A stretch of 64,000 nucleotides of DNA. Origin: Vairimorpha necatrix. Taxonomy: Eukaryota. Below the pieces are notes generated by a model. That model saw only the letters and a list, made by a program, of their open reading frames with translations, searched no databases and was not told where the DNA came from. Position numbers and translations under genes: made by a program. Positions 1 to 48,258 of the stretch are shown here, one piece after another (the stretch's first letter is position 1; each line of letters starts with the position of its first letter). Location of the stretch: the NCBI GenBank assembly GCA_036630325.1, contig CP142730.1:1054001-1118000 (forward strand). The letters are read 5' to 3'.

Positions 1-637
1 AGTAAAAAGAGTAATACCGATAAAAAAATCGTGTATAAAATGATATAAATTGCTTTGCAAACATTTTTGCATTCAGAAGAAACAATTCATATAAACCCGT
101 ACTAATCTTATTAAATAAAAGTTTTAACTTAAAATCTTGGTTTAAAAATTTAATTAAAGTCGTTTTATTTTAGGTAAAGAATTTTAACTATCGAAAGTGG
201 TCAATATTTCTTTTCCTCTACTTTCTCCTCCTTTTTTTGCTCTTCATTTTTGGGGTTCAAAAAAAATCGTAGCGCCTCAAATGCGTGGGCTGATAGTTAT
301 CTTTAGCCATTTGCTTGCATACTTTTTAGCAAATATTTATTGTGGTATTTCTCAGTGGGACATTCTCCGTACAAAGAAAACTCTCTACTATATTCGTTAT
401 AGTTTTATAATTTTGTTTAATAAGATTTTTATTGTAATTAATACAGTCCATTTCATTTTTATAGACACCTTGTTTCATAATTATAGACACCTTGTTCCAT
501 TTTTATAGACACCTTGTTTCATTTTTATAGAACCCTCATTTTATTATTATTATAGACACCTTGTTTCATTTTTATAGAACCCTCATTTCATTATTATAGA
601 CACCTTGTTTCATTTTTATAGACACCTTGTTATAAAA

Positions 638-675
638 TGTAGGGTTTAGAACCCTTAATAAATAAATGGTTAACA
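638..675 (+). repeat. 5' LTR, 38 bp: TGTAGGGTTTAGAACCCTTAATAAATAAATGGTTAACA
   Basis: Direct repeat of 3674-3711; reverse complement occurs at 45184-45221 and 48221-48258. Confidence 0.95.
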
Positions 676-3488
676 TGGCGAACACAAGGATGAACAGGGA
701 AACAAGAGAGTCCCGTAGTCAAGAGGCTAGAACATTAGAGAAAGAGGCAATTAGGATAGATAAGAGACTAAAGTTAATATTGAAAGTTGAGAAAGTTGAG
801 TGGAAAGATGTTATGGATTTGGCATCTGCGAACTTGCAGGATTATATTTTTGAAAATTTTTGTGACGGAAGGAGCAGTTGGGAGGAAATTTATAAAGGCT
901 TACAAAAAGGAGCAGAATTTGAGAGAGAGTCAGAAGAAAGACAAGAAATGATTAAAGAGATTATGGATAAAGTGTTGAAAGAGTTTAGGGAAGAAAGAAA
1001 AGAAAATCTTAGGATGTATAGGAAAAGAAGAGAAATCAGAGAAACTACAAAATGTTTTATATGTAAGAAAGAAGGGCATTACGCTAGAGAATGTCATGAA
1101 AGTGTAGCTGGTAGGGAAAAATATAAAATTAAAAAGGAACAAGTTTTACAGAAAGAACCAATTATCAACAATGAAGGGAAAAGATGTAAAACAGTAAATA
1201 AGTTAGAAAATTTAATTAAAAAGTATCCGGAAGTTTTTAAAGAATCAGAAGAAAAGATAAAATATCTCACAGGAGAGAAGTGTCCAATAAATACTAAGCA
1301 AGGTGAAAAGGTTGTGAAAAGAGGGCAGAATGTGCCATACTACCTTAGGGTGAAATTTGAGGAGTACTTGAATAAGTTGAAAAATAGAGGGGTTATAAGA
1401 CGTTCCAAAAGTGAGTGGAGGAGTCCAATAAGAGCACTTGAAAAACCAAATGGGGACGTAAGATTGGTAAGCAATTTGATGGCGTTAAACGATTTGGTTG
1501 ACAAGGACCAGTACTCACTACCGTTAATTAAGGATATTATGAGAGCCACACAGGGGTCAAAAGTATTTACGGTTATCGACTTAAAAGAAGGGTTTTATCA
1601 TATTGAGATTGAGGAGCACCATAAGCACAAAACAGCATTTGAAGTGAATGGTCGAGTATACGAATGGAATAGTATGGTTATGGGGTTTAAGAATTCGCCT
1701 CATATAATGCAGAGAGTAATGAACAGAGTTTTAGATGAATTCAGAGGTAAAGGCGTGGAAGTATATATGGATGATATAGTTATTCATGGTAAAGACGTAA
1801 GAGTGCATGACGAGTTACTAGAGAGGGTAATTAAAAAGTTTAAAGAGTGTGGGTTGAGAATAAACCAAACAAAGATACAATACAAAAAAGATGAGGTGAT
1901 GTTGCTGGGAGTAACAATTAATGGGGAGGTCATGGGACCGAATGAGATTAAAAAGCAGGAGACATTGGAATATAGAAAACCTGAGAATGTTAGAGAGTTA
2001 AGAAGATTTTTAGGACTAACTGGTTGGTTTAGAGACTTTATTCCCAACTATGCGTATAGAACAGTAAGGCTTACTGAGGCTTTAAAGAAAGATGTTAAGT
2101 GGAATTGGACGGAGGATATGGAAAGAGCTTTTGAGGATATGAAGCAAGGCTTGAGAGATATGAAAAAGTTGAAGATTCCGGACGGAAAAAAGCTATTTAG
2201 AGTAAGAACTGATGCGTGTGATACGGGGATCGGAGCAATTCTATTACAAGAAAATAAAGAGGGTGAGTGGATTCCGATACAATGGGCATCGAAAATGTTG
2301 ACTCCTACCGAGCGAAGATATACGATAAGTGAGAAGGAGATGTTGGCGGTGTTTTTTGGAATAAAGAAGTTTGAAAGTGATTTGAGAGGAAGGAAATTTC
2401 ATTTGATGACGGATCATAAAGCATTAGCAGAGATCAGAAATAAGCCATACTTCAATAATAACAGAATAAACAGATGGGTAGAACAGATACAAGAGTTTGA
2501 CTTTACAATAGAGTATGTGAAAGGGGAGTTGATGACAGATGCAGATGCGTTAAGTAGGCAGTATGATCAGGTAGAAGTTTCGGATGAACAAAAAGAAAAG
2601 GACAACAAGAGAAAAGAAGTGATCGAAAAACAAATTTTGGGAAAAAAGCAGAAACATATTAAAGAAAAGGACGGTAAACAGTATTGGGAATTTTCCACAG
2701 GTGAGGTGAAAGAGATATTGAGCCTAGATAGTAGAGAACATGAAATAACAAGAGTACATGAGGAGTTAAACCATAGAGGTGTCAAAGGCACTTATTATAA
2801 CATTAAACAAAGATGGTATTGGCCTGGTATGAAAGATCATATTAATAAGGTAATTAAGAATTGTGAAATATGTGGGATTAACAATAGGAAAAACACAGGA
2901 GGATGTGATTTCGTAGTAACTAGAAAGAAATTGGAGAAAGTGGCGTTGGATTTAATGGACATAGGTGGAGAGAATAGGTATGTGTTACTGGGTATTGATT
3001 ACTTTACTAGAAGGTTGTGGGGTTCGAATTTGAGATGTAAAGAGAGTAGTGAAGTTATAGAGGTATTACAAAAGTGGATAAGGGAAGATGGATTTCCAGA
3101 GGAATATGTGACAGACAACGGAAAAGAGTTTGTAAGTAATAGATTTAAAGAATGGTGTAGTATTAATGATATTAAACATAGGAAAGTGGGCTTAGAAGCT
3201 CATAGGAGTAATGGTAGAATCGAGAGATGCATCAGAACTATAAGAGAGACATTGATAAAGCAAAATGATGGGAATATTTCTGAAAAGATAGAAAGAGCAA
3301 TCAAAGGATATAATAATACACTACATACAGCAATAAAATGTACGCCGATGGAAGCGTGGAGAGATCAAACTGCTGAAGTTATAATTGAAAATGATGAAAA
3401 TGGAAAATATGCTGGTCGGTTCAAGAGAAGACACAGAGAGACATTTACAGTAGGCCAAGAGGTAAGAATCGCTAGGAGAGAAAATTAA
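666..3488 (+). CDS. Gag(short)-CCHC-RT-RNaseH-integrase polyprotein, C-terminally truncated by a nonsense codon
   Basis: CFICKKEGHYAREC knuckle; RT motifs IDLKEGFYHI, MVMGFKNSP and YMDD; RNase H RTDACDTGIGA and EKEMLAV; integrase HHCC and D,D35E. A TTA>TAA change at 3486-3488 and a 1-bp deletion near 3590 relative to copy 2. Confidence 0.93.
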   Translation: MVNMANTRMNRETRESRSQEARTLEKEAIRIDKRLKLILKVEKVEWKDVMDLASANLQDYIFENFCDGRSSWEEIYKGLQKGAEFERESEERQEMIKEIMDKVLKEFREERKENLRMYRKRREIRETTKCFICKKEGHYARECHESVAGREKYKIKKEQVLQKEPIINNEGKRCKTVNKLENLIKKYPEVFKESEEKIKYLTGEKCPINTKQGEKVVKRGQNVPYYLRVKFEEYLNKLKNRGVIRRSKSEWRSPIRALEKPNGDVRLVSNLMALNDLVDKDQYSLPLIKDIMRATQGSKVFTVIDLKEGFYHIEIEEHHKHKTAFEVNGRVYEWNSMVMGFKNSPHIMQRVMNRVLDEFRGKGVEVYMDDIVIHGKDVRVHDELLERVIKKFKECGLRINQTKIQYKKDEVMLLGVTINGEVMGPNEIKKQETLEYRKPENVRELRRFLGLTGWFRDFIPNYAYRTVRLTEALKKDVKWNWTEDMERAFEDMKQGLRDMKKLKIPDGKKLFRVRTDACDTGIGAILLQENKEGEWIPIQWASKMLTPTERRYTISEKEMLAVFFGIKKFESDLRGRKFHLMTDHKALAEIRNKPYFNNNRINRWVEQIQEFDFTIEYVKGELMTDADALSRQYDQVEVSDEQKEKDNKRKEVIEKQILGKKQKHIKEKDGKQYWEFSTGEVKEILSLDSREHEITRVHEELNHRGVKGTYYNIKQRWYWPGMKDHINKVIKNCEICGINNRKNTGGCDFVVTRKKLEKVALDLMDIGGENRYVLLGIDYFTRRLWGSNLRCKESSEVIEVLQKWIREDGFPEEYVTDNGKEFVSNRFKEWCSINDIKHRKVGLEAHRSNGRIERCIRTIRETLIKQNDGNISEKIERAIKGYNNTLHTAIKCTPMEAWRDQTAEVIIENDENGKYAGRFKRRHRETFTVGQEVRIARREN

Positions 3489-3673
3489 GGTACACGTGCG
3501 AAAACAGACAAGGGAAGATTCACGGGTCGCGGAAGGATCGTAGCTATAAGTGAAAATGATTCATATATTGTGAGACTACTGGATGGTAAATTGTTAAAAA
3601 GAGGCATTATGATTTGAAAGAGATAAGGAAGAGTTGTTTAGAAGATGGAGAGACTACCCGTCTGGAGTGGGGA

Positions 3674-3711
3674 TGCAGGGTTTAGAACCCTTAATAAATA
3701 AATGGTTAACA
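3674..3711 (+). repeat. 3' LTR, 38 bp
   Basis: TGCAGGGTTTAGAACCCTTAATAAATAAATGGTTAACA, one substitution relative to the 5' LTR. Confidence 0.95.
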
Positions 3712-3856
3712 TAAAATTTATTTTTATTTTTTTCATAATTTATTTATATAGTTGAATCGTAAAGAAGAGATAACGATATAGATATAAACATCAATATTTA
3801 CATGGCAAACTATGAAAACATCTTAGAAGTTTTTAATTAAAATTTTTAATATTAAT

Positions 3857-4947
3857 TCAGAAAAAAATTCTCATTGACAAGAGCTTTCTCGATAAATTCT
3901 CTCATATGAGAAAAGTAACCATTTATGACGAATACTTCTGTGTTAAACACGTCCTCAATACAATCAATTAACAAAGGAGTGGTTGTTACATAGAGCTCTC
4001 TGTTTTACTCGGGACTTGAAACTGTTTAAAAACTCCTCGATGGGGTTTAGTTGTGGAGAATAAGGAGGGAGAAGTTTTAGACTGTATCCTTTGTTTCTAA
4101 ATGCAGCAGCTACTTCGGATTTTCTGTGTATAGGTGTGTTATCCAATATTATAAATCTGTTTTCCTCTTGCTCACAAATAGGTAAATTATTGTTATTGAA
4201 TTGACAAAATCTGTAGATTTAAAATTCCGACTTTAGTTTTATGCGCATATAATCCAATAACGCTTATAGCACACATTTAAGAAACATTAGTCCCTTTCGA
4301 ATTCGGGATTGTTACACAACACTTAGTATTTCTTAAAGGATAACCAAAAGTATTGTTAAGGTGCAGATTTAAACCAGGTTTATCGAGAAATAATAAATTA
4401 TCATTTGATATGATATTTATTACTCTCGCATATTGACACCGTAACAGCCTGTTCTGAGGACTGTTTCTACTTAGTGGAATTAAAGTCGGGGTTTAGAACT
4501 ATACCCTATTTTTTTAACAAGTCTGTAAACAGTTGACTTAGAGTAATGTCCCGTGGAATTTAAATTTTGCAATTTATCGGATAAATTATATAGACCTAGA
4601 CAAGGATTACGGGCTATTTTTGTTGCAATAATATTTGAAACCATAGAAATATCTTTTAAAGATTCGCTCTTTTTTTGTCCTGCCGTTTTAAAAGTTAAAG
4701 GTTGGTAAATTCTCCGTAAGATTCTTTTTATATAGGCGTTTAAGGCTAGACTTACTGAGATTTAAAGCAACTTCCATATCAATAAATTTCATACCAGGCC
4801 GAGTAACGAAAGAATTTTCGTTACTCGACCTGGTAATCATCTTCCTGGTTTTTCTTGGGGTAGAAGGTTGCGTTTCATCTTCTATCTTAGCAAATGATCT
4901 TTATCACGATATTCCTTAAGTTCATCTCTGACATTTAGGTTTCTCAT
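3857..4947 (-). pseudogene. Tc1/IS630 DD34E transposase pseudogene
   Basis: Fragment DNTPIH...LLPPYSPQLNPIE. Colinear with 14458-15550, with multiple stops and frameshifts. Confidence 0.88.
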
Positions 4948-5539
4948 ATTTTAAGGGTTAAAAATTTTAAAGGAAAGTAAAATAAATTTTGTGCAAAGGT
5001 GTCTATAAAAATGAAACAAGGTGTCTATAATAATGAATGGGGGTTCTATAAAAAATAAAACAAGGTGTCTATAATAATGAAATGAGGGTTCTATAAAAAT
5101 GAAACAAGGTCTATAAAAATGGAACAAGGTGTCTATAATTATGAAATAAACAGTATATTTATTGTTATTATTGTTGTTGTTCATTCTTTCTAAAATACTT
5201 GCCCTTAAACATATTATTTTTATTTATACAAAAATAATTTCTAGAAAATTCGTTATGATGTCAATAATCTCATGTGGTTTATATCACATTTATATAAAAA
5301 AAATTGACAAAAGTTTCAAAGTATGTGTAACACATATTATCATCATCATTCTTTGTACGTCAAAAAATGTCAAACGTCTCAGTTGATTTTTTATCAATGT
5401 CAAAAATCATTGTTTTTGAAAAATTCGGCGATCGGCCTAAAATTACCACATAGCGCCTAATTTTTCAATACAACAGTTTTTTTTTCTCTAAATTTTTTTT
5501 TGTATAATTTATATGAAAAAATTCTAGTTAGCCCATAAA

Positions 5540-6589
5540 ATGTTTTTAATATTAGATTTAGTATATTGCGCTAATTTAAATCTAGATGCGCACTTAGAAT
5601 GTTCAATTTACAAAAATAGTAATGATACTTCTAATACATCTACTCAAGAAAAGTTTGATAATGAATCACATGCAGAAATTCTTAAACAAAATTCAAATAT
5701 CGATGGTTTAAATTATGAATCTGCTAATGATTTATGTGGTATCACTAATTTCATATTTGAAAATATTATTAATTTTAATATAAACAATGACTATCAAGAT
5801 TTAAATTCTTTAAAGGAAGAAATGGCTAGTACGTATTTAGGTAAAGACTATAACGATTCTTTGGAAATTGACGATATAAATATTATAACAATTGAGTCTC
5901 AAGATGAAGATACAAAATCTTCTCAAACAACGGATAAAGTAGGGGACATACCGCAAAACACCAAAAGTTTAGCCCCCGACAGCTCTTGTTATTTTTTTAC
6001 AGTAAAGGAAAGATTATCTCAGTGTGAGGAAAAAATCAAAACAATTCTTAATAAAGGAAACTTGGAAAAAATTATATTAGAGAAAAAAAATCAAAATGGG
6101 ATAAACGAAAAAATGATCGATAAAGAGATTATGAAATCCTATAATAAAAAATTAACAAAAACCAGATTGCATAATCGTAAACTAAACGTTAAAAATTTAC
6201 GAGCTTATGAAAAAGTATTAAGTGAACCATGGATACCTACAGATATAAAAAACATAATAACTGATTTTATAAGAATTTTCAACTTATTTATAGAAATTTT
6301 TTATATTAATGCAAGACTACCCAAACTGAAAGTAGGATCAGTTGAATCCAGAATCAATATCCAAAATTTCAACATCAAAATTTTTTCCCAATATAAAAAC
6401 ATACCAATTTTAGAAAGTTTTCACTTACTAGAAGATAAATTAGAAACATATGAATACAAATATGTTGAAATTAAATATGTTTTAGAACAGCTTATAACTA
6501 GAATTAAAACGAAATTAACAACCTTGATCCTACACTATAACGAAACTATAAACATTCTTAGAGGGTTGAATCAATTATACTACAATTAA
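5540..6589 (+). CDS. Unknown 349-aa protein, possibly secreted (paralog A)
   Basis: Long ORF with GCCC upstream of the ATG. Short hydrophobic N-terminus MFLILDLVYC, acidic N-half, basic and probably helical C-half. Paralog at 17387. Confidence 0.85.
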   Translation: MFLILDLVYCANLNLDAHLECSIYKNSNDTSNTSTQEKFDNESHAEILKQNSNIDGLNYESANDLCGITNFIFENIINFNINNDYQDLNSLKEEMASTYLGKDYNDSLEIDDINIITIESQDEDTKSSQTTDKVGDIPQNTKSLAPDSSCYFFTVKERLSQCEEKIKTILNKGNLEKIILEKKNQNGINEKMIDKEIMKSYNKKLTKTRLHNRKLNVKNLRAYEKVLSEPWIPTDIKNIITDFIRIFNLFIEIFYINARLPKLKVGSVESRINIQNFNIKIFSQYKNIPILESFHLLEDKLETYEYKYVEIKYVLEQLITRIKTKLTTLILHYNETINILRGLNQLYYN

Positions 6590-12435: not shown

Positions 12436-14273
12436 GAAGATTGTATTAAAAGAATTAAGATTTATGATAAATTAAATTACATTAATAAGGCAATTCTAAG
12501 AAAATTTTTTTTAGAAAATAAAATGTATAGGACTAACAAGTAAAATTTTAAATTTTTTCGTTGAAGATAATAGGAGGAAGTTTGAGAACGAGTTGAGACA
12601 AGAAGCACTTAAAGAAATAGATAAATTATTACATAAGATTCGGGGATAAGTACCCAATTCATAAATGAGTATAAACAAGAAGAATTAGAAGTATTTTATA
12701 AAAAGCTGTCCGATATTGTAAAAATACAATTTAGAAGAAGTAGTAAAAGATATTCGATAAAGCTTTACTAGAATAATTTAGGAGTGAAATATTTGTACTG
12801 GATCAGAAGACATTTTTAAGCATAAAGAATATAATATCAAACTTGAATAACAAAGAAATGATAGTAAAAATTTTAGGTATACATGATAGTCTTATAAAAA
12901 AATATTAAGTAATTTACCATGACAATATATACTCTTTAATTTTACATTGTTTTAGTGAAATTGATCATATCTTATGTGTTAAGAAAATGTGGTATTGTCT
13001 CAATTTATAGATATTTAATACAAAGCAAACAAAATAAAATTAAATATTGAAAATAATGTTAAAAAACTTTATAAATTTCTTCCTATATAAATTTGATAAT
13101 ATTAGTTTAAGTTTTACTTCTGCGATTAAAGTTAAAATTGCTCGTTTTAAAATCTTATATGTACTTCTTTTTTAAAATTATTTTCATGAGCATAAATTTA
13201 AGGCTTCTGATATCTTTATATGTCTAATGCTAGAAATGCATGAATAAAAATGTTGATTATGAATGCATTCAAGCAAATGAAAATTTTTAATATACTAACC
13301 AAATATTAATTTGCAAGACAGGCCGCATCATACATTAAATAGTATAAGAAAAGGATATTACATTTACTATGGTTTAATAAGGGTATCTACATAAAATATT
13401 GTTTAGAATGAATATGAAAATAATATAAATCTCAAAACATCAACCAATAAACTGATCTGAACTAATTGAAAAAAAGTGCATGCAAATGACTCTCGTAAAG
13501 TATTAAAATATGTATGCTCATCTTAAATTCATTACTCAATTTGATATGATCCTCTGTATTAATATCAACCCTCAGTTTACAAATACTAATATATTAAATT
13601 TGGTGAACTTCTAAATCTAAAACTAAGGAGCGTTTTTTGTGATTGTCACGTTATGTATGTCTAAGGTCTTTTGAAATATAGTCTGATGCAGCAGATTGAT
13701 AAAAAACTGTATAAAATACATTATCGGAGAATTATATGTAATAAAGTCTTAAATTTATGTTAACTATATAATTCAAAACATATTTAGATCTTTAATCCCT
13801 ATATATAGATTAAAAAATTTTTTAAATTTCACTGACGTTAAGAGATTAGTTCTCAAACTCGAAAAAATTAAAATGCCATTAAATTCCTTTTAAGTTATTT
13901 ACACTATCTAAATATATTAAATTAACTATTTATTAAGAACTTTTGAAATTTACTTTGTAAAATATTTTAAAAAAGCATATACAAGACATATGAAACCGTC
14001 TTTGAGATATTAATTTTATAACTTCAAAAAATTGATAACTTCGATGTCTTCGAATTCGTAAATATATTTATCTTTTAAACACATATCACACGAATTATTT
14101 AAAATCCCTTTCTTAAAAGATATTATAACACATAAATATAAATTATGTATTTGTATTCAGACTGCGTTAGATATATAAAATCGTTTCATAGACATTATCT
14201 GTTTCTAATCTATTGATAAACAAAGAATTTATTATCGTATTTATTGAAAACTTCTTTTTATAACATCTTTTTA

Positions 14274-15842
14274 CAGTCCATTTCATTTTTATAGACACCT
14301 TGTTATAAAATTTATAGACTCCTCATTTTATTAAAGACACCTTGTTATAAAATTTATAGACACCTTATTTCATTTGTATAGAACCCTCATTCATTATTAT
14401 AGAACCCTTGTTCTAAAATTTATTTTACTTTCCATTAAAATTTTTAACCCTTAAAATATGAGAAACCTAAATGTCAGAGAAGAACTTGAGGAATATCGTA
14501 CAGAAGAATCATTTGTCGAGATAGAAGTTGAAATGCAGTCTTCTACCCCAAGAAAACCCAGGAAGATGATTACCAGGTCGATAATCGAAAGTTTTCTTTC
14601 GTTACTCGACACTGGTATGAAACTTATTGATATGGAAGTTGCTTTAAATCTCAGCAAGTCTAGCCTCACACGCCTATATAAAAGATATCTTACAGGAGAT
14701 TTTACCAACCTTTCAACTTTTAAAACGGCAGGACAAAAAAAGAGTGAATTTTTAAAAGATATTTCTATGGTTTCAATTATTATTGCAACGGAAATAGCCC
14801 CGAATCCTCGTCTAGGTCTTTATAATTTATCCGATAAATTGCAAAATGTAAATTCCACGGGACATTACTAAAAGTCAACTGTTTGCAGACTTGTTAAAAA
14901 ATTGGGGTATAGTTCTAAAACCCCGACCTTGATTCCACTAGGTAGTAACAGTCCTCAGAACAAGCTGTTAAGGTCTCAATATGCGAGAGTAATAAATATC
15001 ATATTAAATGATAATTTAATATTTCTCGATGAAACTGGTTTAAATCTGCACCTTAATACTTTTGGTTATTCTTTAAGAAATACTAAGTGTTGTGTAACGG
15101 TCCCGAATTCTGAAGGGACTAATGTTTCGTTAATGTGTGCTATAAGCGTTAATGGATTATATGAGCATAAAACTAAAGTCGGAAGTTTTAAATCTACAGA
15201 TTGTCGAATTCATTAACAACTATTTACCTATTTGTGAGCAAGGGGAAAACAGAATTTTAATATTGGATAACGCATCTATACACAGAACATCCGAAGTAGC
15301 TGCTGCATTTAGAAACAAAGGATACAGTCTAAAACTTCTCCCTCCATATTCTCCACAACTAAACTCCATCGAGAAGTTTTTTAACAGTTTCAAGTCCAGA
15401 GTAAAACAGAGACCTAGACCAACAACCACTCCTTTGTTAATTGATTGTATTGAGGGCGTGTTGAACACAGAAGTATTCGTCATGGATGGTTACTTTTCTC
15501 ATATGAGAGAATTTATCGAGAAAGCTCTTGTCAATACGGATTTTTTCTGAATTAATGAAATTAAAAAATTTAATTTAAAATTTCTAGGATGTTTTCATTG
15601 TTTGGCATGTAAATATTGATGTTTATATCTTTATCATTGTCTCTTCTTCGCGATTCAACTATATAAATAAATTATGAAAAAAATAAAAATAAATTATATA
15701 ACAAGGTGTCTATAAATTTTATAACAAGGTGTCTATAAATTTTATAACAAGGTGTCTATAAAAATAAAATGAGTTGTCTATAAAAATGAAACAAGGTTTC
15801 TATAATTATAAAACAAGGTGTCTATAAAAATGAAATGGACTG
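14274..15842 (+). mobile_element. Tc1/IS630-family DNA transposon copy 2 (full length)
   Basis: 31-bp perfect TIRs CAGTCCATTTCATTTTTATAGACACCTTGTT, TA on both sides, subterminal repeat arrays. Confidence 0.95.
14458..15550 (+). pseudogene. DD34E transposase with one in-frame stop (14869-14871) and a frameshift near 15200
   Basis: HTH-like N-terminus; FLDETG; LDNASIH with 34 residues between D and E (YSPQLNSIE); AACCCTT upstream of the ATG. Confidence 0.9.
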
Positions 15843-17386
15843 TATATCCTATTCTTCTCTTTAGTTGTATTGTTTTTTGTAACATATTTATCATTTAAAA
15901 ATTCAAATAAAAACTTTAATTAATAGTCCTCTTTTTACAACAGCAATTGCAAAATGTAAAAAATAAACACAAAGTTCGATGATTTACTCAAAAATTTTTA
16001 TATTAATACAATAATAAAAGTTTGATTGTAAAGTGAATATTTATATATTTAGTACCACGTACCCCTATACTGCTAGTGATGACGCTCTACAATGTTGTAG
16101 AATAATTATTTTAATTTAATTGTCTCTATTTTCTTTTACACCTCTTGTGTTTATCTCTCATTATCTCTTCTTTTGTATCTTTTTTATGAAAAAAATTTCT
16201 AAATTTTCTAAAAAATTGACACATCTTAGAAAAACAGTCCATAGTATTTGTAAGAATCATATGTATCATTGTTAAAAATTGTACGCAATAAAAAATGTAA
16301 AATCATAATCTATAAATTTATTAAAATATGTTGTAATAAAAAAACTTCGGAGTTCGAGTAGAAAAAGATCATAAAAAGTGTTGCTTTCGTTTTCTACATA
16401 ACAATGAAGCACTAAAATTTATAAGTTAGGCAGACAAAAATATTCGACTATTTCTACATTGAAAAAAAGATATTATGAAATAGCTAAAAATTAAAATTTA
16501 CAGTATATTTTTAATGTCGCTATAATTATTAAGTATTTTTTATAATTTTAATTTTGTAAAATATTCAAAATGTTTACCTATTATATACGAAATTTGCTTT
16601 AAAGATCTTTAAATTTTACAATAAATGTTAAAATGCAATACGGGTCTTAGATAGAACACATATTTCACACTCTAAAATCAATGCTCTAAGAAAGGAAAAT
16701 TTTACATATATTATGTCTAATTGTTGCAACATAAAATTAAAATTTTGTATCTAACAATATAGTTATTATATCTTTTAAATTATAGGTTCAAATGGTTTTG
16801 TCTTGATCTTGCTCCTCCTTTTTGCCTTAATTTTATATGTTAATGAGAAAACCAAAACTCTTTTGGAAGTGTTTGCTACTTTCTACCAAAAACTATAAGT
16901 ATTTGATCGCAAAAAATCAACCATAATTGGTTTCTATGCAAATTGTTTTAACGTGCCAGGAAATGTACATTTTCTTTTTTATGAACATCTTTCGGGGTAT
17001 ATCTAAATATTACTGTTTCGAATTTGTCTCTACACAATAATCTTGAAAATTTATAAACATACCAGTTAAAAGTTAAGTGTTAATTACTCACGATACACTT
17101 CTTGTAGTAATTTGCTTGCATACTTTTTAGAAAATATTTATATAAAAAAATTGACAAAAGTTTCAAAATATGTGTAAACACATAATATCATCATAATTCT
17201 TTGTACGTCGAAAAATGTCAAACGTCTCAGTTGATTTTGTATCAATGTCAAAAATCATTGTTTTTGAAAAATTTGGCGATCGGCCTAGATTTACCGCATA
17301 GCGCCTAATTTTTCAATACAACAGTTTTTTTTTCTCTAAATTTTTTTTGTATAATTTATATAAAAAAATTCTAGTTAGCCCATAAA

Positions 17387-18439
17387 ATGTTTTTAATATT
17401 AGATTTAGTATATTGTGCTAATTTAAATCTAGATGCGCACTTAGAATGTTCAATTTACAAAAATAGTAATGATACTTTTAATACATCTACTCAAGAAAAG
17501 TTTGAACATGAATCACATGCAGAAATTTTTAAACAAAATTCAAATATTGATGGTTTTAATTATGAATCTGCTAATGATTTATATGGTATTACTAATTTTA
17601 TAGTTGAAAGCTTTACTAATTTTGATATAAACAATGACTATCAAGATTTAAATTCTTTAAAGGAAGAAATGGGGAGTACGTATTTAGGTAAAGACTATAA
17701 CGATTTCATGGAAATTGACGATATAAATATTATAACAATTGAGTCTCAAGATGAATATACAAAATCTTCTCAAACAACGGATCAAGTAGGGGACATCCCG
17801 CAAAACACCAAAAGTTCAACCCCCGAAAGCTCTTGTTATTTTTTTACAGTAAAGGAAAGATTATTTCAGTGTGAGGAAAAAATCAAAACAATTCTTAATA
17901 AAGGAAACTTGGAAAAAATTATATTAGAGAAAAAAAATCAAAATGGGATAAACGAAAAAATGATCGATAAAGAGATTATGAAATCCTATAATAAAAAATT
18001 AACAAAAACCAGATTGCATAATCGTAAACTAAACGTTAAAAATTTACGAGCTTATGAAAAAGTATTAAGTGAACCATGGATACCTACAGATATAAAGAAC
18101 ATAATAACTGATTTTATAAGAATTTTCAACTTATTTATAGAAATTTTTAATATTAAGGCAAGAATGCCCAAACTGAATGTAGGATCAGTTGAATCCAGAA
18201 TCAATATCCAAAATTTCAACATCAAAATTTTTTCCCAATATAAAAACATACCAATTTTAGAAACTCTAAACTTGTTGGTAAGCAAATTAGAAACATATAA
18301 ATACGAAAATATATTAATTAAACATAATATACGAAGGCTTATAACTAGAATTAAAACGAAATTAACAACCTTGATCCTACGCTATAACAAAACTATAAAC
18401 ATTCTTGAAGAGTTGAATCAATTATACTACAACCAATAA
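17387..18439 (+). CDS. Unknown 350-aa protein, possibly secreted (paralog B)
   Basis: Paralog of 5540-6589; about 43 amino acid differences by manual count. Confidence 0.85.
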   Translation: MFLILDLVYCANLNLDAHLECSIYKNSNDTFNTSTQEKFEHESHAEIFKQNSNIDGFNYESANDLYGITNFIVESFTNFDINNDYQDLNSLKEEMGSTYLGKDYNDFMEIDDINIITIESQDEYTKSSQTTDQVGDIPQNTKSSTPESSCYFFTVKERLFQCEEKIKTILNKGNLEKIILEKKNQNGINEKMIDKEIMKSYNKKLTKTRLHNRKLNVKNLRAYEKVLSEPWIPTDIKNIITDFIRIFNLFIEIFNIKARMPKLNVGSVESRINIQNFNIKIFSQYKNIPILETLNLLVSKLETYKYENILIKHNIRRLITRIKTKLTTLILRYNKTINILEELNQLYYNQ

Positions 18440-38769: not shown

Positions 38770-39711
38770 TTATACTCGGATTTCATTTAATTCAATTTCC
38801 TCGTGAACTTTTTTAGGCTTGTTTTTTGAAACCCTTTTACAATACTTATCGACTCTTAAGTGTCTTCCTCTTAATGATCCGCATGCACTATTTATCTTCC
38901 AGTAAGCTATAGAAACTACAACAATAATTAAAAACGCATTAATTCCCATTAAAATATAAAAATTGTCATGGATAAATGTACTTAAAGCTTCGCCAATTTC
39001 GTAGGTGCTTTCATGATTTATCACAGTATTATTGTCTTCAATTGGCATATCTTCATAACATACTGCCTTTGATATTTGTCTTCTGTTTTCCTTTAAAACG
39101 TTAACAATATTTTCTTTCCCTTCTAATCCATAACAATTCTTGTTATGAGATATGAGTGTATTGCACATTCTATAGAGGATTCCAGGAATTTCTCCTATTC
39201 CCTTGAATACATAACATGTGTTTTTATATATAATGTCTTTAATCGCATTTTCCACCGACGAAGAAGCCTCTAGTACATCTTTAAAACATATTCCCAACGT
39301 ATTATAAAATCTTATTGTAATATCTACGATTTCATTAATAAAAATTTGCACAGAAAAATCAAATTTATCTAAAATAAAAGGGTCCCAAGCCTCAATTTTA
39401 AATTTTTGCTTAATTACAATCTCAAATACATTCTTCAATTCGTTTTTTACCTCAACAAAACTATTATCTGTATCATTGCTTTGAGCCATTCGTTTAAATA
39501 TAATATGTTCCGTTATACTTTTCCACACTATTTCAGCAAAATCCTGGATAGTCATCGGAGGTTGGCCTGTTATATTCGCAATTCCGTCATATGTACTGCA
39601 TAATTTATAATGATTGATATCATAAGAATCAATACTCATATTATTTTCAGTTGTTCTTATTATTGATATTAGTATTAAGATCAGATTAAAAGAATAAAAT
39701 AATAAACTCAT
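38770..39711 (-). CDS. Six-cysteine type I membrane protein family member (313 aa)
   Basis: Signal peptide, W..I..H.IF motif, YN.L..CFKD, NTCY, RMC, NCY, AVC, TM segment and basic tail. Confidence 0.88.
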   Translation of the reverse strand: MSLLFYSFNLILILISIIRTTENNMSIDSYDINHYKLCSTYDGIANITGQPPMTIQDFAEIVWKSITEHIIFKRMAQSNDTDNSFVEVKNELKNVFEIVIKQKFKIEAWDPFILDKFDFSVQIFINEIVDITIRFYNTLGICFKDVLEASSSVENAIKDIIYKNTCYVFKGIGEIPGILYRMCNTLISHNKNCYGLEGKENIVNVLKENRRQISKAVCYEDMPIEDNNTVINHESTYEIGEALSTFIHDNFYILMGINAFLIIVVVSIAYWKINSACGSLRGRHLRVDKYCKRVSKNKPKKVHEEIELNEIRV

Positions 39712-43783: not shown

Positions 43784-44758
43784 TTAATATTTAATCGAAT
43801 TTTCTTTTGATCCTTCAAACCAATTAATAAAATTATCAGCAGCTTTTTTTGCAGCCTTCAGTATCTTTGGAAGAATATTATAAGCGTGGATTAACAGAAA
43901 TGGCGTAACAACCCAGGAAGCCAATGTTTGATATAGATTCAATAACATAAAAATTAACGCGATGGTATTATTGTAGAGGCCCTGTGAAAGATCAAATTCT
44001 CTATATGTAAAAAAACCATTAACCCCGAAATTTATAACCGTTTCAATTGGGCCGAGTTTAAGCATTTGTCCCACAGCGCCCATACCAAAATCTATAATTT
44101 TTTTCCAAAGAGGTTTTTTAGGAGATTCTTTTATAACATTAGATTTATAAAAAACACATTTTTCTGCATTCTCCGCAAGCTCTTTGCTAAAATCTGCATT
44201 TTTATAGCTAGATAAATCATATTCCAGAGACACCAATTCTTCTTTATCGTTCAACTTCAATTTAATCTCATTTAAAATAAAATTTCTGATTTTCAGTTCT
44301 TTTGGAATTGAATCACTACCGGGGTTATCAAAAATATATAAAGAAATTTCATATGATTCAATTGTGAAATCTGCCATTTTTTCAACAAAAGATTTTTCAG
44401 ATTCAGTAAGATAATCGAATTTTACAGAATCTGGATCGATCAGATTTTTTTTTAGCAAAATGTAATCGTTAAAGGCGCGCTTCATTTTTTGTTGTTTTTC
44501 TTCGAAAGTACTTTCAGAGGTATTTTTTGCTAATAATTCTATTGTTTTATCATTTTCTACTATAGCTTCCCATACGACTTTTATGAATTCTTGCAAATCA
44601 GACATTTTTATAAAATTAAGTTTTCCGTTTTCAATTAATTCGTCGAATCGCCCGTTAATATTAAAATTGGATTTTAATATATCTACTTTGCTGCTGCTTG
44701 TTCTAACTAAATGTAGCATTAGATGCAACAATTGAAATAAACGGAGTGAGGATCTCAT
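43784..44758 (-). CDS. Divergent, Cys-poor member of the surface protein family (324 aa)
   Basis: Signal peptide; LQEFIKVVWEAI and FVEKMADFTIESY align with the family core; hydrophobic C-terminus with FTYREFD. Confidence 0.85.
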   Translation of the reverse strand: MRSSLRLFQLLHLMLHLVRTSSSKVDILKSNFNINGRFDELIENGKLNFIKMSDLQEFIKVVWEAIVENDKTIELLAKNTSESTFEEKQQKMKRAFNDYILLKKNLIDPDSVKFDYLTESEKSFVEKMADFTIESYEISLYIFDNPGSDSIPKELKIRNFILNEIKLKLNDKEELVSLEYDLSSYKNADFSKELAENAEKCVFYKSNVIKESPKKPLWKKIIDFGMGAVGQMLKLGPIETVINFGVNGFFTYREFDLSQGLYNNTIALIFMLLNLYQTLASWVVTPFLLIHAYNILPKILKAAKKAADNFINWFEGSKENSIKY

Positions 44759-45183
44759 TAAGGGGAAGAAAGAAAAAATTATCTAAATAAAAATTAATAA
44801 ATTTTGAAGTAGGAATTTAATATTTTTATAATGTTTATTAAAACTTCCAGAATCATATGATATTTGTTATTATTTGATTTTTTACTAATTCTTGTGCGTT
44901 TTATATTGAAGCCGCTAGGAATCAATTAAAATTACATCTTGTCGAATCTTTATATAACAATTAGAATTTATTAACTTGATTTAGAAATAATCAATTGTAT
45001 ACTTGGCTAATATTAGTAAACACTACTATAAACAAGTAAAATAATTATTGATGATCTATCAACATAAATAAAATGTTCAAATTTATGACATAAGGAAGTC
45101 AATTTTAGTGATAAATTGATTTGTTTTTAACCCATAAAAAAGAACATGTTTAAATTGAACAAAATTTTATTTTTTTTATATAT

Positions 45184-48100
45184 TGTTAACCATTTATTTA
45201 TTAAGGGTTCTAAACCCTACATCCCCCCTCCAGACGGGTAGTCTCTCCATCTTCTAAACAACTCTTCCTTATCTCTTTCAAATCATAATGCCTCTTTTTA
45301 ACAATTTTACCATCCAGTAGTCTCACAATATATGAATCATTTTCACTTATAGCTACGATCCTTCCGCGACCCGTGAATCTTCCCTTGTCTGTTTTCGCAC
45401 GTGTACCTAAATTTTCTCTCCTAGCGATTCTTACCTCTTGGCCTACTGTAAATGTCTCTCTGTGTCTTCTCTTGAACCGACCAGCATATTTTCCATTTTC
45501 ATCATTTTCAATTATAACTTCAGCAGTTTGATCTCTCCACGCTTCCATCGGCGTACATTTTATTGCTGTATGTAGTGTATTATTATATCCTTTGATTGCT
45601 CTTTCTATCTTTCCAGAAATATTCCCATCATTTTGCTTTATCAATGTCTCTCTTATAGTTCTGATGCATCTCTCGATTCTACCATTACTCCTATGAGCTT
45701 CTAAGCCCACTTTCCTATGTTTAATATCATTAATACTACACCATTCTTTAAATCTATTACTTACAAACTCTTTTCCGTTGTCTGTCACATATTCCTCTGG
45801 AAATCCATCTTCCCTTATCCACTTTTGTAATACCTCTATAACTTCACTACTCTCTTTACATCTCAAATTCGAACCCCACAACCTTCTAGTAAAGTAATCA
45901 ATACCCAGTAACACATACCTATTCTCTCCACCTATGTCCATTAAATCCAACGCCACTTTCTCCAATTTCTTTCTAGTTACTACGAAATCACATCCTCCTG
46001 TGTTTTTCCTATTGTTAATCCCACATATTTCACAATTCTTAATTACCTTATTAATATGATCTTTCATACCAGGCCAATACCATCTTTGTTTAATGTTATA
46101 ATAAGTGCCTTTGACACCTCTATGGTTTAACTCCTCATGTACTCTTGTTATTTCATGTTCTCTACTATCTAGGCTCAATATCTCTTTCACCTCACCTGTG
46201 GAAAATTCCCAATACTGTTTACCGTCCTTTTCTTTAATATGTTTCTGCTTTTTTCCCAATATTTGTTTTTCGATCACTTCTTTTCTCTTGTTGTCCTTTT
46301 CTTTTTGTTCATCCGAAACTTCTACCTGATCATACTGCCTACTTAACGCATCTGCATCTGTCATCAACTCCCCTTTCACATACTCTATTGTAAAGTCAAA
46401 CTCTTGTATCTGTTCTACCCATCTGTTTATTCTGTTATTATTGAAGTATGGCTTATTTCTGATCTCTGCTAATGCTTTATGATCCGTCATCAAATGAAAT
46501 TTCCTTCCTCTCAAATCACTTTCAAACTTCTTTATTCCAAAAAACACCGCCAACATCTCCTTCTCACTTATCGTATATCTTCGCTCGGTAGGAGTCAACA
46601 TTTTCGATGCCCATTGTATCGGAATCCACTCACCCTCTTTATTTTCTTGTAATAGAATTGCTCCGATCCCCGTATCACACGCATCAGTTCTTACTCTAAA
46701 TAGCTTTTTTCCGTCCGGAATCTTCAACTTTTTCATATCTCTCAAGCCTTGCTTCATATCCTCAAAAGCTCTTTCCATATCCTCCGTCCAATTCCACTTA
46801 ACATCTTTCTTTAAAGCCTCAGTAAGCCTTACTGTTCTATACGCATAGTTGGGAATAAAGTCTCTAAACCAACCAGTTAGTTCTAAAAATCTTCTTAACT
46901 CTCTAACATTCTCAGGTTTTCCATATTCCAATGTCTCCTGCTTTTTAATCTCATTCGGTCCCATGACCTCCCCATTAATTGTTACTCCCAGCAACATCAC
47001 CTCATCTTTTTTGTATTGTATCTTTGTTTGGTTTATTCTCAACCCACACTCTTTAAACTTTTTAATTACCCTCTCTAGTAACTCGTCATGCACTCTTACG
47101 TCTTTACCATGAATAACTATATCATCCATATATACTTCCCCGCCTTTACCTCTGAATTCATCTAAAACTCTGTTCATTACTCTCTGCATTATATGAGGCG
47201 AATTCTTAAACCCCATAACCATACTATTCCATTCGTATACTCGACCATTCACTTCAAATGCTGTTTTGTGCTTATGGTGCTCCTCAATCTCAATATGATA
47301 AAACCCTTCTTTTAAGTCGATAACCGTAAATACTTTTGACCCCTGTGTGGCTCTCATAATATCCTTAATTAACGGTAGTGAGTACGGGTCCTTGTCAACC
47401 AAATCGTTTAACGCCATCAAATTGCTTACCAATCTTACGTCCCCATTTGGGTTTTCAAGTGCTCTTATTGGACTCCTCCACTCACTTTTGGAACGTCTTA
47501 TAACCCCTCTATTTTCCAACTTATTCAAGTACTCCTCAAATTTCACCCTAAGGTAGTATGGCACATTCTGCCCTCTTTTCACAACCTTTTCACCTTGCTT
47601 AGTATTTATTGGACACTTCTCTCCTGTGAGATATTTTATCTTTTCTTCTGATTCTTTAAAAACTTCCGGATACTTTTCAATTAAATTTTCTAACTTATTT
47701 ACTGTTTTACATCTTTTCCCTTCATTGTTGATAATTGGTTCTTTCTGTAAAACTTGTTCCTTTTTAATTTTATATTTTTCCCTACCAGCTACACTTTCAT
47801 GACATTCTCTAGCGTAATGCCCTTCTTTCTTACATATAAAACATTTTGTAGTTTCTCTGATTTTTCTTCTTTTCCTATACATCCTAAGATTTTCTTTTCT
47901 TTCTTCCCTAAACTCTTTCAACACTTTATCCATAATCTCTTTAATCATTTCTTGTCTTTCTTCTGACTCTCTCTCAAATTCTGCTCCTTTTTGTAAGCCT
48001 TTATAAATTTCCTCCCAACTGCTCCTTCCGTCACAAAAATTTTCAAAAATATAATCCTGCAAGTTCGCAGATGCCAAATCCATAACATCTTTCCACTCAA

Positions 48101-48258
48101 CTTTCTCAACTTTCAATATTAACTTTAGTCTCTTATCTATCCTAATTGACTCTTTCTCTAATGTTCTAGCCTCTTGACTACGGGACTCTCTTGTTTCCCT
48201 GTTCATCCTTGTGTTCGCCATGTTAACCATTTATTTATTAAGGGTTCTAAACCCTACA
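45184..48258 (-). mobile_element. Miniature Ty3/gypsy LTR retrotransposon copy 2 (identical 38-bp LTRs, TSD TATAT)
   Basis: LTRs at 45184-45221 and 48221-48258. TATAT at 45179-45183 and 48259-48263. PPT GGAGGGGGGA. Confidence 0.96.
45210..48230 (-). CDS. Uninterrupted 1006-aa Gag-CCHC-RT-RNaseH-IN polyprotein with no recognisable protease
   Basis: ATG lies inside the 5' LTR and TAG inside the 3' LTR. All RT, RNase H and integrase catalytic motifs are present. Confidence 0.95.
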   Translation of the reverse strand: MVNMANTRMNRETRESRSQEARTLEKESIRIDKRLKLILKVEKVEWKDVMDLASANLQDYIFENFCDGRSSWEEIYKGLQKGAEFERESEERQEMIKEIMDKVLKEFREERKENLRMYRKRRKIRETTKCFICKKEGHYARECHESVAGREKYKIKKEQVLQKEPIINNEGKRCKTVNKLENLIEKYPEVFKESEEKIKYLTGEKCPINTKQGEKVVKRGQNVPYYLRVKFEEYLNKLENRGVIRRSKSEWRSPIRALENPNGDVRLVSNLMALNDLVDKDPYSLPLIKDIMRATQGSKVFTVIDLKEGFYHIEIEEHHKHKTAFEVNGRVYEWNSMVMGFKNSPHIMQRVMNRVLDEFRGKGGEVYMDDIVIHGKDVRVHDELLERVIKKFKECGLRINQTKIQYKKDEVMLLGVTINGEVMGPNEIKKQETLEYGKPENVRELRRFLELTGWFRDFIPNYAYRTVRLTEALKKDVKWNWTEDMERAFEDMKQGLRDMKKLKIPDGKKLFRVRTDACDTGIGAILLQENKEGEWIPIQWASKMLTPTERRYTISEKEMLAVFFGIKKFESDLRGRKFHLMTDHKALAEIRNKPYFNNNRINRWVEQIQEFDFTIEYVKGELMTDADALSRQYDQVEVSDEQKEKDNKRKEVIEKQILGKKQKHIKEKDGKQYWEFSTGEVKEILSLDSREHEITRVHEELNHRGVKGTYYNIKQRWYWPGMKDHINKVIKNCEICGINNRKNTGGCDFVVTRKKLEKVALDLMDIGGENRYVLLGIDYFTRRLWGSNLRCKESSEVIEVLQKWIREDGFPEEYVTDNGKEFVSNRFKEWCSINDIKHRKVGLEAHRSNGRIERCIRTIRETLIKQNDGNISGKIERAIKGYNNTLHTAIKCTPMEAWRDQTAEVIIENDENGKYAGRFKRRHRETFTVGQEVRIARRENLGTRAKTDKGRFTGRGRIVAISENDSYIVRLLDGKIVKKRHYDLKEIRKSCLEDGETTRLEGGCRV

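Follow-up and report, generated by a model that had tools for sequence, protein, structure and literature searches.

In LTR schemes, Ty3/gypsy elements (Metaviridae) have the order Gag-PR-RT-RH-IN, and the textbook schemes all include the protease (PR). The Tf1 and Tf2 elements of Schizosaccharomyces pombe use a single ORF from Gag to integrase with no frameshift or stop; Tf1 reportedly encodes and needs a protease, and is said to self-prime from its own 5' end. Retroelements that do without a protease include DIRS/Ngaro, LINE ORF2 and hepadnavirus P, and foamy-virus Pol keeps PR and RT fused; in each a multi-domain reverse-transcribing protein works without full maturation cleavage. These systems rely on a tyrosine recombinase, an endonuclease or protein priming, or have kept the protease, and serve only as a working analogy for the element described here; we know of none among them that pairs LTRs and a DDE integrase with the lack of a protease. 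Part of the canonical coding set is also missing from TRIM, LARD, TR-GAG and BARE-2 elements. These are without RT and integrase or without Gag, and each relies on a master element to which it is closely related.

The Nbr family of Nosema bombycis and the Anncaliia algerae groups come from the same host phylum as the present element. In the accessible text of Parisot et al. 2014 (PMC4202319), microsporidian Ty3/gypsy elements have a single-polyprotein organisation, as found here, and the word protease does not occur. The accessible text of PMC2474625, citing Xu et al. 2006, gives Gag, protease, RT, RNase H and integrase for 'nearly all' N. bombycis elements. Neither a protease-less gypsy clade nor LTRs of ~40 bp were described in the accessible text of PMC4202319, PMC2474625, PMC2387174, PMC13174016, PMC5381614, PMC10759460, PMC3601003 or PMC3248453; subscription journals and Repbase lay outside this literature search, so an earlier description is possible.

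The window analysed here is a 64-kb stretch of contig CP142730.1 from the microsporidian parasite Vairimorpha necatrix. It contains two copies of a gypsy-type jumping gene of ~3.07-3.1 kb, with the following outer features (window positions):

638-3711, + strand: copy 1, whole element
633..637, + strand: copy 1, 5' target-site duplication TAAAA
638..675, + strand: copy 1, 5' LTR of 38 bp (TG..CA); it includes the ATG at 666 as well as a GGGTT/AACCC hairpin, a CCC motif and AATAAA
676..689, + strand: copy 1, candidate primer-binding site (PBS) starting TGG, inside codons 4-8 (MANTR)
666..3488, + strand: copy 1, polyprotein ORF of 940 aa, truncated because codon 941 has become a stop
3664..3673, + strand: copy 1, polypurine tract (PPT) directly before the 3' LTR
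3674..3711, + strand: copy 1, 3' LTR, one mismatch to the 5' LTR
3712..3716, + strand: copy 1, 3' target-site duplication TAAAA
45184..48258, - strand: copy 2, whole element of 3,075 bp, 99.5% identical to copy 1
48221-48258 and 45184-45221, - strand: copy 2, identical pair of LTRs
48259-48263 and 45179-45183, - strand: copy 2, flanks ATATA
45210..48230, - strand: copy 2, intact polyprotein ORF of 1006 aa, with its start in the 5' LTR and its stop in the 3' LTR

Both copies showed direct terminal repeats of the form TG..CA and 5-bp target duplications that differ between the copies, with the LTR pairs matching at 38/38 (copy 2) and 37/38 (copy 1) positions. The LTR sequence itself gave four matches in the window compared to none expected. 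Copies 1 and 2 occupy unrelated sites, and copy 1 sits in a repeat of a kind for which an empty-site paralogue near 15700 (minus strand) reads through without interruption. The element was recently mobile; its insertions are recent and of the integrase type.

The position of the PBS and PPT followed the Ty3/gypsy pattern, with TGG immediately after the 5' LTR and a purine run before the 3' LTR. The LTR length, by contrast with Ty3/gypsy elements, lies far below the usual range, and these are the shortest LTRs known to us. The single ORF runs from the 5' LTR to the 3' LTR, so that LTR, PBS and PPT are all overlapped by coding sequence, a further difference from Ty3/gypsy. The MANTR residues at the PBS are kept at the N-termini of relatives. 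No tRNA gene was found in the window, and the PBS has no priming-tRNA match there. Unlike self-priming Tf1, the element contains no stretch of 7 nt or more that is complementary to the 18 nt following its LTR. In L001, a relative with 66% amino acid identity and the one relative used for comparing the LTR and PPT DNA ends, the 38-bp LTR was also conserved, and the PPT and ~20 nt upstream of it were nearly identical. Compactness is family-wide: 14 relatives of ~1000 aa lie in contigs with just 25-261 nt outside the ORF. This miniaturisation, and the clade-wide loss of the protease reported below, extend beyond what had been predicted for the locus.

A CCC motif was present at most 12 nt upstream of the ATG in 11/14 host ORFs of the window, and the LTR carries CCC 11 nt before its own ATG. 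The LTR may hold its promoter at this host-type motif. RNA folding of the first 100 nt was no better than shuffled sequences (z = -0.23), the small LTR hairpin being the sole stable structure, and Rfam gave no matches at E<=1 in window positions 1-6000.

The polyprotein was divided into these parts (window positions, with residues in the ORF):

666..1052, + strand: Gag-like N-terminal domain, aa 1-129; in the AF2 model it consists of helices only, one of them 56 residues long (aa 72-127)
1053..1094, + strand: CCHC zinc knuckle, aa 130-143, C-X2-C-X4-H-X4-C
1095..1202, + strand: 36-aa linker, aa 144-179, the expected place of a protease, with no D[ST]G
1203..1442, + strand: RT lead-in, aa 180-259, with LENLI.KYPEVF from aa 180
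1443..1919, + strand: RT core (Pfam RVT_1), aa 260-418, with YMDD
2106..2498, + strand: RNase H, aa 481-611, site of the only DTG
2733..3182, + strand: integrase, HHCC finger aa 690-741 and DDE core aa 766-839
47694..47843, - strand: copy 2, CCHC knuckle and 36-aa linker, aa 130-179, laid out as in copy 1

The original prediction, which centred on window positions 1053-1240 (aa 130-192 of the copy 1 ORF), was borne out for the layout of the polyprotein. In both copies 36 aa without a D[ST]G lie between the knuckle and the RT lead-in, the Gag part ahead of the knuckle is short (129 aa), and no stop or frameshift separates gag from pol. The last of these is an arrangement shared with Tf1/Tf2. 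Two of the relatives have database names that include 'Tf2'.

The Pfam domains RVT_1, RT_RNaseH, Integrase_H2C2 and rve occurred in the gypsy Pol order, and the best PDB match was Ty3 of Saccharomyces cerevisiae, whose RT-RNase H is homologous (7q5b Ty3 Gag-Pol, E 1e-61, query 223-633 on 600-1010; also 4ol8). The likeness to Ty3/gypsy therefore comprises the RT-RNase H-integrase order, an integrase with HHCC and DDE parts, TG..CA ends, the 5-bp duplication, the TGG of the PBS, the PPT and a CCHC motif before Pol. PFV PR-RT structures (7o0h/7o24) were also among the PDB matches. The catalytic residues were invariant in 26/26 aligned members: Y367/D369/D370 in RT, D516/E556/E558/D583 in RNase H and H698/H703/C733/C736/D762/D817/E853 in integrase. 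A non-autonomous assignment of the TRIM/LARD/TR-GAG type was rejected on the presence of RT, RNase H and integrase with these invariant residues; in contrast to those elements and BARE-2, the family has all three enzymes intact and conserved, and no close protease-bearing master was seen among the relatives found.

Compared to L001, pS was saturated (0.74-0.85), with pN at 0.13 (RT and RNase H) and 0.22 (integrase). By this measure the enzymes are under purifying selection. Between the two window copies, 12 of the 14 coding differences were nonsynonymous and 2 synonymous, and copy 1 has, besides the nonsense change, a 1-base indel at codon 975, past that codon. Read alone, such changes would fit dead, neutrally evolving deletion derivatives of a normal Gag-PR-RT-RH-IN element. 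That reading is contradicted, and very improbable, given that the same architecture is common to 25/25 aligned relatives at 42-56% identity, that the catalytic residues do not vary, that pN is far below the saturated pS, and that both insertions are young and still have their target duplications intact. The 12:2 ratio is neutral decay after insertion, and the between-copy changes are uninformative for or against function. Copy 2, with its open ORF, has changes at otherwise conserved positions beside YMDD and in the RT thumb region.

Unlike Ty3/gypsy elements in general, the family has no retropepsin. D[ST]G occurs once per copy, at aa 519 in the TDACDTG of RNase H, as had been predicted, and not between Gag and RT. 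A retropepsin is a beta-rich domain of ~90-120 aa with a catalytic D[ST]G; here 36 aa are available, and the AF2 model of aa 1-260 was all-helical with no strands and no retropepsin fold. In Pfam searches no peptidase was found in the window protein even at E<=1, and no retropepsin family at E<=0.1 in the 26 aligned members. Our own protease profile, built from 22 protease-annotated distant relatives, matched a protease core in 0/36 close relatives and nowhere in the window protein, and found nothing in six-frame translations of both copies. Pol does start at aa 180. The BLASTP alignment to a protease-bearing relative begins at query residue 180, right after the relative's protease, and in PDB protease-RT chains the alignment opens at residue 112-123, opposite query 160-180.

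A cryptic or non-canonical protease hidden in the polyprotein was weighed against these results. Profiles notoriously miss retroelement proteases, according to the accessible text of PMC3248453, and the precomputed Pfam lists had indeed missed the proteases of the sister elements P0041 and P0042; in addition, aa 612-689 and 900-1006 lie outside the structure model. However, both searches passed a positive control: our profile matched the sister elements P0041, P0042, P0046 and P0049, and Pfam at E<=0.1 gave near full-length gag-asp_proteas in P0041, P0042 and P0305. The 36 aa between the knuckle and the RT lead-in leave little room, the N-terminal 160 aa are confidently helical, and in PDB protease-RT chains the aligned part starts only where the protease ends. 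The sole poorly modelled stretch, ~57 aa, is too short for a retropepsin, and the unassigned stretches are either too short or the usual integrase C-terminal region. No frameshifted or antisense protease was found in the six frames; as no other sense frame of the element is open for more than 55 aa, a hidden frameshifted protease is absent. The D[ST]G tripeptide in the linker of 2/25 relatives (P0010 and P0011) and a weak Peptidase_A17 match in 3/26 members (best E 0.047) were not significant. A cryptic protease is thus largely contradicted and hardly credible. The element has no protease of its own, and this is not an artefact of profile sensitivity.

The N-terminal part was modelled with confidence (pLDDT ~90 or more for aa 21-150 and ~88 for aa 151-160), falling below 60 for aa 171-220. 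C130, C133, H138 and C143 of the knuckle were invariant in 26/26. In Foldseek searches of PDB and BFVD no fold matched the N-terminal domain at E<=0.001, nor did the capsids of Ty3 and Arc, and phmmer searches of the N-terminus against PDB found zinc knuckles only. A phmmer search with aa 1-180 against 1.84 billion representatives returned 64 matches, which were short same-family fragments or generic CCHC proteins. In contrast to Ty3, the domain has no capsid fold recognisable by the model and fold searches, and only 222 residues precede the point that corresponds to residue 600 in Ty3. The N-terminal 129 aa may be a stub of a coat protein, a non-capsid 'Gag'.

To place the loss, a tree of 65 rows was built from RT to IN. 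The window element fell in a 33-row clade (SH-aLRT 100) in which 27 members had complete N-termini without a protease, six were N-truncated and none had a protease. The successive sisters of this clade were P0041+P0042 and P0044+P0046, with a protease in P0041, P0042 and P0046 and a truncated N-terminus in P0044; the outgroup of the clade also carries a protease. The protease-less clade has diversified to ~45% identity, and its records are named for at least three microsporidian genera. On this tree the loss is old and clade-wide. A search for a helper protease, with the protease region of P0042 as query, found only two proteins, both unnamed, and was uninformative.

Another explanation is that the family lacks autonomy in its protease alone and borrows a retropepsin, and perhaps a capsid, from co-resident protease-bearing Ty3/gypsy elements. 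Sister lineages with a protease exist (P0041, P0042, P0305 and P0046), and among plant LTR elements BARE-2 is reportedly partially parasitic on BARE-1. Against such borrowing, the nearest protease-bearing relatives found share just 35-38% identity with the element, and their N-terminus differs and lacks the knuckle; no conserved cleavage motifs were seen; and the window contains no retroelement other than the two copies. Moreover, with the clade diversified across at least three genera, a helper would have to persist in each. We consider borrowing improbable. The original prediction had likewise offered parasitism on a complete family with the same ends, beside an uncleaved fusion and a host or helper protease. 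Its statements on the missing protease and the short Gag stood; the complete, same-ended parent family was not supported, given the distance of the protease-bearing relatives found and a clade that is old, diversified and under purifying selection.

The reading we favour, with a probability of roughly 45%, is that the element belongs to an old lineage of microsporidian Ty3/gypsy elements and has moved recently. The lineage would have lost the aspartic protease a single time, later spread and diversified without it, and be autonomous with an essentially uncleaved polyprotein. Transcription would start at the host-type CCC motif in the tiny LTR. The product is one polypeptide of ~1000 aa, in which a small helical domain is followed by a nucleocapsid-type CCHC knuckle and a short disordered linker, and these by RT, RNase H and integrase. 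The helical domain and knuckle may bind and chaperone the element's own RNA, forming a ribonucleoprotein and not a matured capsid; cDNA would then be made by the fused RT-RNase H, and the fused integrase would insert it, producing the 5-bp duplications observed. Such an uncleaved mode would be unprecedented for the class, since protease mutants of Ty1, Ty3 and Tf1 reportedly produce no cDNA. Somewhat more tentatively, the family may be the minimal autonomous LTR retroelement: ~3.07 kb with one ORF, no protease, a helical RNA-binding stub in place of a capsid, an uncleaved polyprotein-RNA particle, and 38-bp LTRs accommodating promoter, poly(A) signal and integrase sites.

The spacers of the polyprotein raise a different explanation for the same missing protease, namely that host-cell or microsporidian proteases (a DDI1-type retropepsin, for example, or non-specific trimming) cut the disordered linkers, so that the Gag-like, RT-RNase H and integrase parts are set free. 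That the element has no protease of its own supports this equally well. The knuckle-to-RT and RNase H-to-integrase spacers are charged, variable and poorly modelled (pLDDT <60 at aa 171-220), and would thus be open to proteases. On the other hand, the length of the knuckle-to-RT spacer lay anywhere between 56 and 195 aa in 25 relatives, its sequence was of low complexity, the spacers showed no conserved cleavage context among relatives that would mark a specific site, and the window holds no host protease candidate. Cutting by such proteases is less likely than the uncleaved mode, but more likely than borrowing.

If this minimal-element reading is true, the life cycle of LTRs and integrase can do without proteolytic maturation and without a retrovirus-type capsid, and genome reduction in microsporidia has reached the parasites' parasites. 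As a diversified, selected and recently mobile lineage with no protease, the family is a natural test of what the retroviral life cycle can dispense with. It also provides a very small RT-integrase machine for study, in which the fit of U3, R and U5 into 38 bp is testable. LTR finders that set minimum LTR lengths probably miss elements of this kind. They may also be mis-binned: one relative was found in a record whose title names a Clostridium MAG.

The product of copy 2 is a single uninterrupted protein of 1006 aa; the same protein in copy 1 is cut short by a nonsense change (codon 941) and also has a 1-base indel (codon 975). Five domains were matched in Pfam:

aa 129-144, CCHC knuckle (weak match)
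aa 260-418, reverse transcriptase (RVT_1)
aa 481-611, RNase H
aa 690-741, integrase HHCC finger
aa 766-839, integrase core

No peptidase family was matched by Pfam in the window protein, even at E<=1. Window positions 1053-1240 correspond to aa 130-192 and were alike in both copies, with the knuckle (aa 130-143) followed by 36 residues and then, at aa 180, by the RT lead-in LENLI.KYPEVF. The sole D[ST]G of the polyprotein was found at aa 519, within the RNase H of both copies. The original prediction had described a knuckle about 36 aa from the RT lead-in, no D[ST]G between them and a gag joined to pol without stop or frameshift; the layout and the D[ST]G scan of both copies bore it out in every particular. 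In BLASTP against the protease-bearing sister protein P0042, query residues from 180 onward aligned from subject residue 154, just past the DTGS-containing domain. As this alignment begins directly after the protease domain, aa 180 is the true start of Pol homology. Residues 112-123 of the protease-RT structures 7o0h and 7kse (foamy virus) and 8r0s aligned to query 160-180, and Ty3 Gag-Pol residue 600 to query residue 223.

Since failure to find a protease in surveys of retroelements tends to be put down to weak profiles (PMC3248453), controls were run. A protease HMM was trained on the sequence before the RT in 22 distant hits with a retropepsin in precomputed Pfam lists, and was searched against the window protein and the upstream parts of 109 proteins (hits with >60 residues before the RT). 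A protease core overlooked by the precomputed lists was recovered in four sister elements, P0042 (E 9e-8), P0049 (2e-7), P0046 (3e-5) and P0041 (1.5e-4), and in none of 36 close relatives nor the window protein, which matched weakly and only at the profile tail, corresponding to the RT lead-in. A live Pfam scan (E<=0.1) gave a near full-length gag-asp_proteas in P0041, P0042 and the further sister P0305 and in none of 26 family members, three of which showed a non-significant Peptidase_A17 match (best E 0.047). P0041 reads DRG where D[ST]G is expected. Six-frame translations of both copies contained no protease, and no alternative sense frame was open for more than 55 aa. The D[ST]G tripeptide was present in the linkers of two of 25 relatives (P0010 and P0011), in low-complexity surroundings and without profile support.

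A retropepsin fold within aa 1-200, which the original prediction had proposed to look for by structure prediction, was not seen. The AlphaFold2 model of aa 1-260, with a 26-sequence alignment as input, was all-helical and had no strands; it comprised helices at 15-37, 46-52 and 55-65, a 56-residue helix at 72-127, the knuckle and a helix at 147-162. The pLDDT was ~90 or more over aa 21-150 and ~88 over aa 151-160, and the sole low-confidence stretch (~aa 166-222) leaves too little room for a retropepsin. A cryptic protease inside the polyprotein is thus most improbable, given this model and the empty profile, Pfam and six-frame searches, the first two with a positive control on the sisters. 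The data show an element without its own protease, as predicted by the model for aa 1-260 and as indicated by sequence comparison for aa 260-1006.

The protein search returned ~45 relatives at 44-73% identity, the named ones from Nosema granulosis, V. necatrix and Enteropsectra breve; most are of ~1000 aa, with RT, RNase H and integrase and without a protease. Some microsporidian retrotransposon contigs, those of two of the relatives included, were filed as Clostridium sp. MAGs (the DNA of one relative, L001, NZ_JBOFRG010000340.1, and the proteins P0001 and P0046), and these records are evidently mis-binned contaminants. The knuckle was kept in 25/25 full-length relatives aligned. The very short pre-knuckle Gag noted originally recurred in these 25 (44-179 aa, typically 121-148), and the spacing from knuckle to RT motif was 56-105 aa (outliers 134 and 195), compared with 62 aa in the window.

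In a maximum-likelihood tree of RT to integrase (65 rows, 804 columns; IQ-TREE quick search, SH-aLRT support only), the window protein fell in a clade of 33 rows with support 100: 27 are complete at the N-terminus and lack a protease, six are N-truncated, and a protease is present in none. Proteases are carried by the successive sister groups of this clade, first P0041+P0042 and next P0044+P0046, as well as by the outgroup, except that P0044 is N-truncated and that no protease was scored in P0054, a long-branch row of the outgroup. With the root assumed on the protease-bearing outgroup, the tree points to a single loss. The CCHC knuckle was absent from the protease-bearing sisters P0041, P0042 and P0305 and present in the protease-less clade, which raises the possibility of an exchange of the entire N-terminal module instead of a simple deletion of the protease.

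Catalytic residues of RT, RNase H and integrase were invariant in 26/26 sequences. The nucleotide-level comparison was with one relative, L001 (66% aa identity, 3,024-bp contig), for which pS was 0.74-0.85, that is, saturated, against a pN of 0.13 in RT and RNase H, 0.22 in integrase and 0.42 in knuckle plus linker. This dN/dS-type check on RT and integrase, suggested at the outset, shows enzymes under selection; neutral evolution of the protease-less copies is contradicted by the pN well under pS and by the invariant residues. Between the two copies, 12 nonsynonymous and 2 synonymous differences were counted, a ratio expected from neutral decay after insertion and without bearing on selection in the lineage. 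That the copies are dead is barely credible.

Self-comparison of the window revealed one element twice, at 638-3711 (+) and 48258-45184 (-), with 99.5% identity across 3,075 bp. A 38-bp direct repeat, TG..CA, stands at both ends of each copy, with four matches in the window versus 0 expected (these four are listed first, followed by the LTR of L001):

638-675, LTR of copy 1
3674-3711, LTR of copy 1
45184-45221, LTR of copy 2
48221-48258, LTR of copy 2
2724-2761 of L001, LTR of this relative

The 5-bp target duplications differ (TAAAA for copy 1, ATATA for copy 2); a candidate primer-binding site (PBS) starting TGG directly follows the 5' LTR, and a purine run (PPT) directly precedes the 3' LTR. 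The element is therefore a bona fide LTR retrotransposon, recently inserted by an integrase-type reaction. Tf1-type self-priming was not supported. The ORF has its ATG within the 5' LTR and its stop within the 3' LTR, and PBS and PPT are both coding. We know of no LTR nearly as short as 38 bp. The 3' end of L001 shares this purine tract and carries a 38-bp TG..CA LTR, 29/38 identical as counted from the alignment; its PPT region and ~20 nt upstream are nearly identical to the window element, though coding sites are saturated. As the contigs that carry 14 relatives of ~1000 aa leave only 25-261 nt beyond the ORF, the miniature format is probably family-wide.

Based on RT-RNase H-integrase homology, LTR ends, target duplication, PBS and PPT, the element is a Ty3/gypsy derivative, differing in its missing retropepsin. 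Its N-terminus is 'Gag' solely by position and nucleocapsid-type knuckle. HIV-1 NC matched the knuckle (E 8e-4), and the Ty3 Gag match was confined to its knuckle. The helical part gave no match at E<=0.001 among solved or predicted viral folds and no relatives beyond the family among 1.84 billion representative proteins. The N-terminal MANTR recurs in many relatives, a conservation owed at least partly to the overlap of its codons with the PBS.

In the 60 nt preceding 14 host ORFs (e.g. 23632, 29956, 32878 and 38770-39711, minus strand), CCC or CCCC was present 3-12 nt before the start codon in 11, and host stop codons were often part of TAATAAA or TAAA-rich signals. The host motifs resemble core promoter and poly(A) signals of microsporidia, and the LTR mimics them: its CCC precedes the ATG at 666 by 11 nt, and it also contains AATAAA. 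The 38-bp LTR presumably holds a host-type core promoter, which would put R at ~10-15 nt; in MMTV, R is reported to span 11 bp (PMC3601003).

The knuckle and helical domain of the single polyprotein would bind element RNA, and the same polyprotein would reverse-transcribe it and integrate the cDNA, remaining uncleaved or being trimmed only by cellular proteases in disordered spacers. Of these two modes we prefer, at a probability of roughly 0.45, the uncleaved ribonucleoprotein: a conserved site is lacking in the spacers, the 1:1 stoichiometry is fixed, and the N-terminal domain does not resemble a shell-forming capsid. The same lack of a conserved site counts against trimming by host proteases, which we regard as less likely; a protease borrowed from another element is less likely still.

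In the literature searched, microsporidian gypsy elements are described as single-polyprotein (PMC4202319, PMC13174016) and N. bombycis elements as protease-containing (PMC2474625); in the V. necatrix genome paper, repeats were masked before gene calling and are not discussed (PMC10759460). No mention of protease loss or of ~38-bp LTRs was found in the parts of the microsporidian gypsy literature searched, Repbase and subscription journals lying outside it, and an earlier description of such elements may exist.

The window is AT-rich (GC ~25%), and its genes are compact, intron-free and eukaryotic (MCM5, CDC20, SNF2 helicase, parvulin, TFIIE-beta). Beyond the window's own entry, MCM5 had its nearest named relatives in Nosema granulosis (69%) and Encephalitozoon; the host is taken to be the microsporidian V. 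necatrix. A ~1.5 kb repeat lies at 441-641 + 3712-5158 and at 14272-15847 (minus strand), its two copies 89% identical; a 22-23 bp unit, tandemly repeated, forms inverted arrays at its two ends, and ORF 15152-15550 within it encodes a fragment of a DDE_3 (Tc1/mariner-type) transposase. Copy 1 is nested in one copy of this remnant, and the uninterrupted site is visible in the paralogue near 15700. A segmental duplication (5288-6589 / 17136-18439) encodes two Asn/Ile/Lys-rich paralogues of 349/350 aa, 88% identical and with no Pfam match, each adjoining a copy of this repeat. Seven divergent paralogues (22-52% identity, ~305-325 aa, hydrophobic N-termini, no Pfam family), probably a family of secreted or membrane proteins specific to the lineage, are clustered as follows:

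38770-39711 (-), paralogue
43784-44758 (-), paralogue
49538-50455 (-), paralogue
54351-55265, paralogue
57496-58428, paralogue
60321-61253, paralogue
63580-64000, paralogue

Two members of this cluster flank copy 2 of the retrotransposon.
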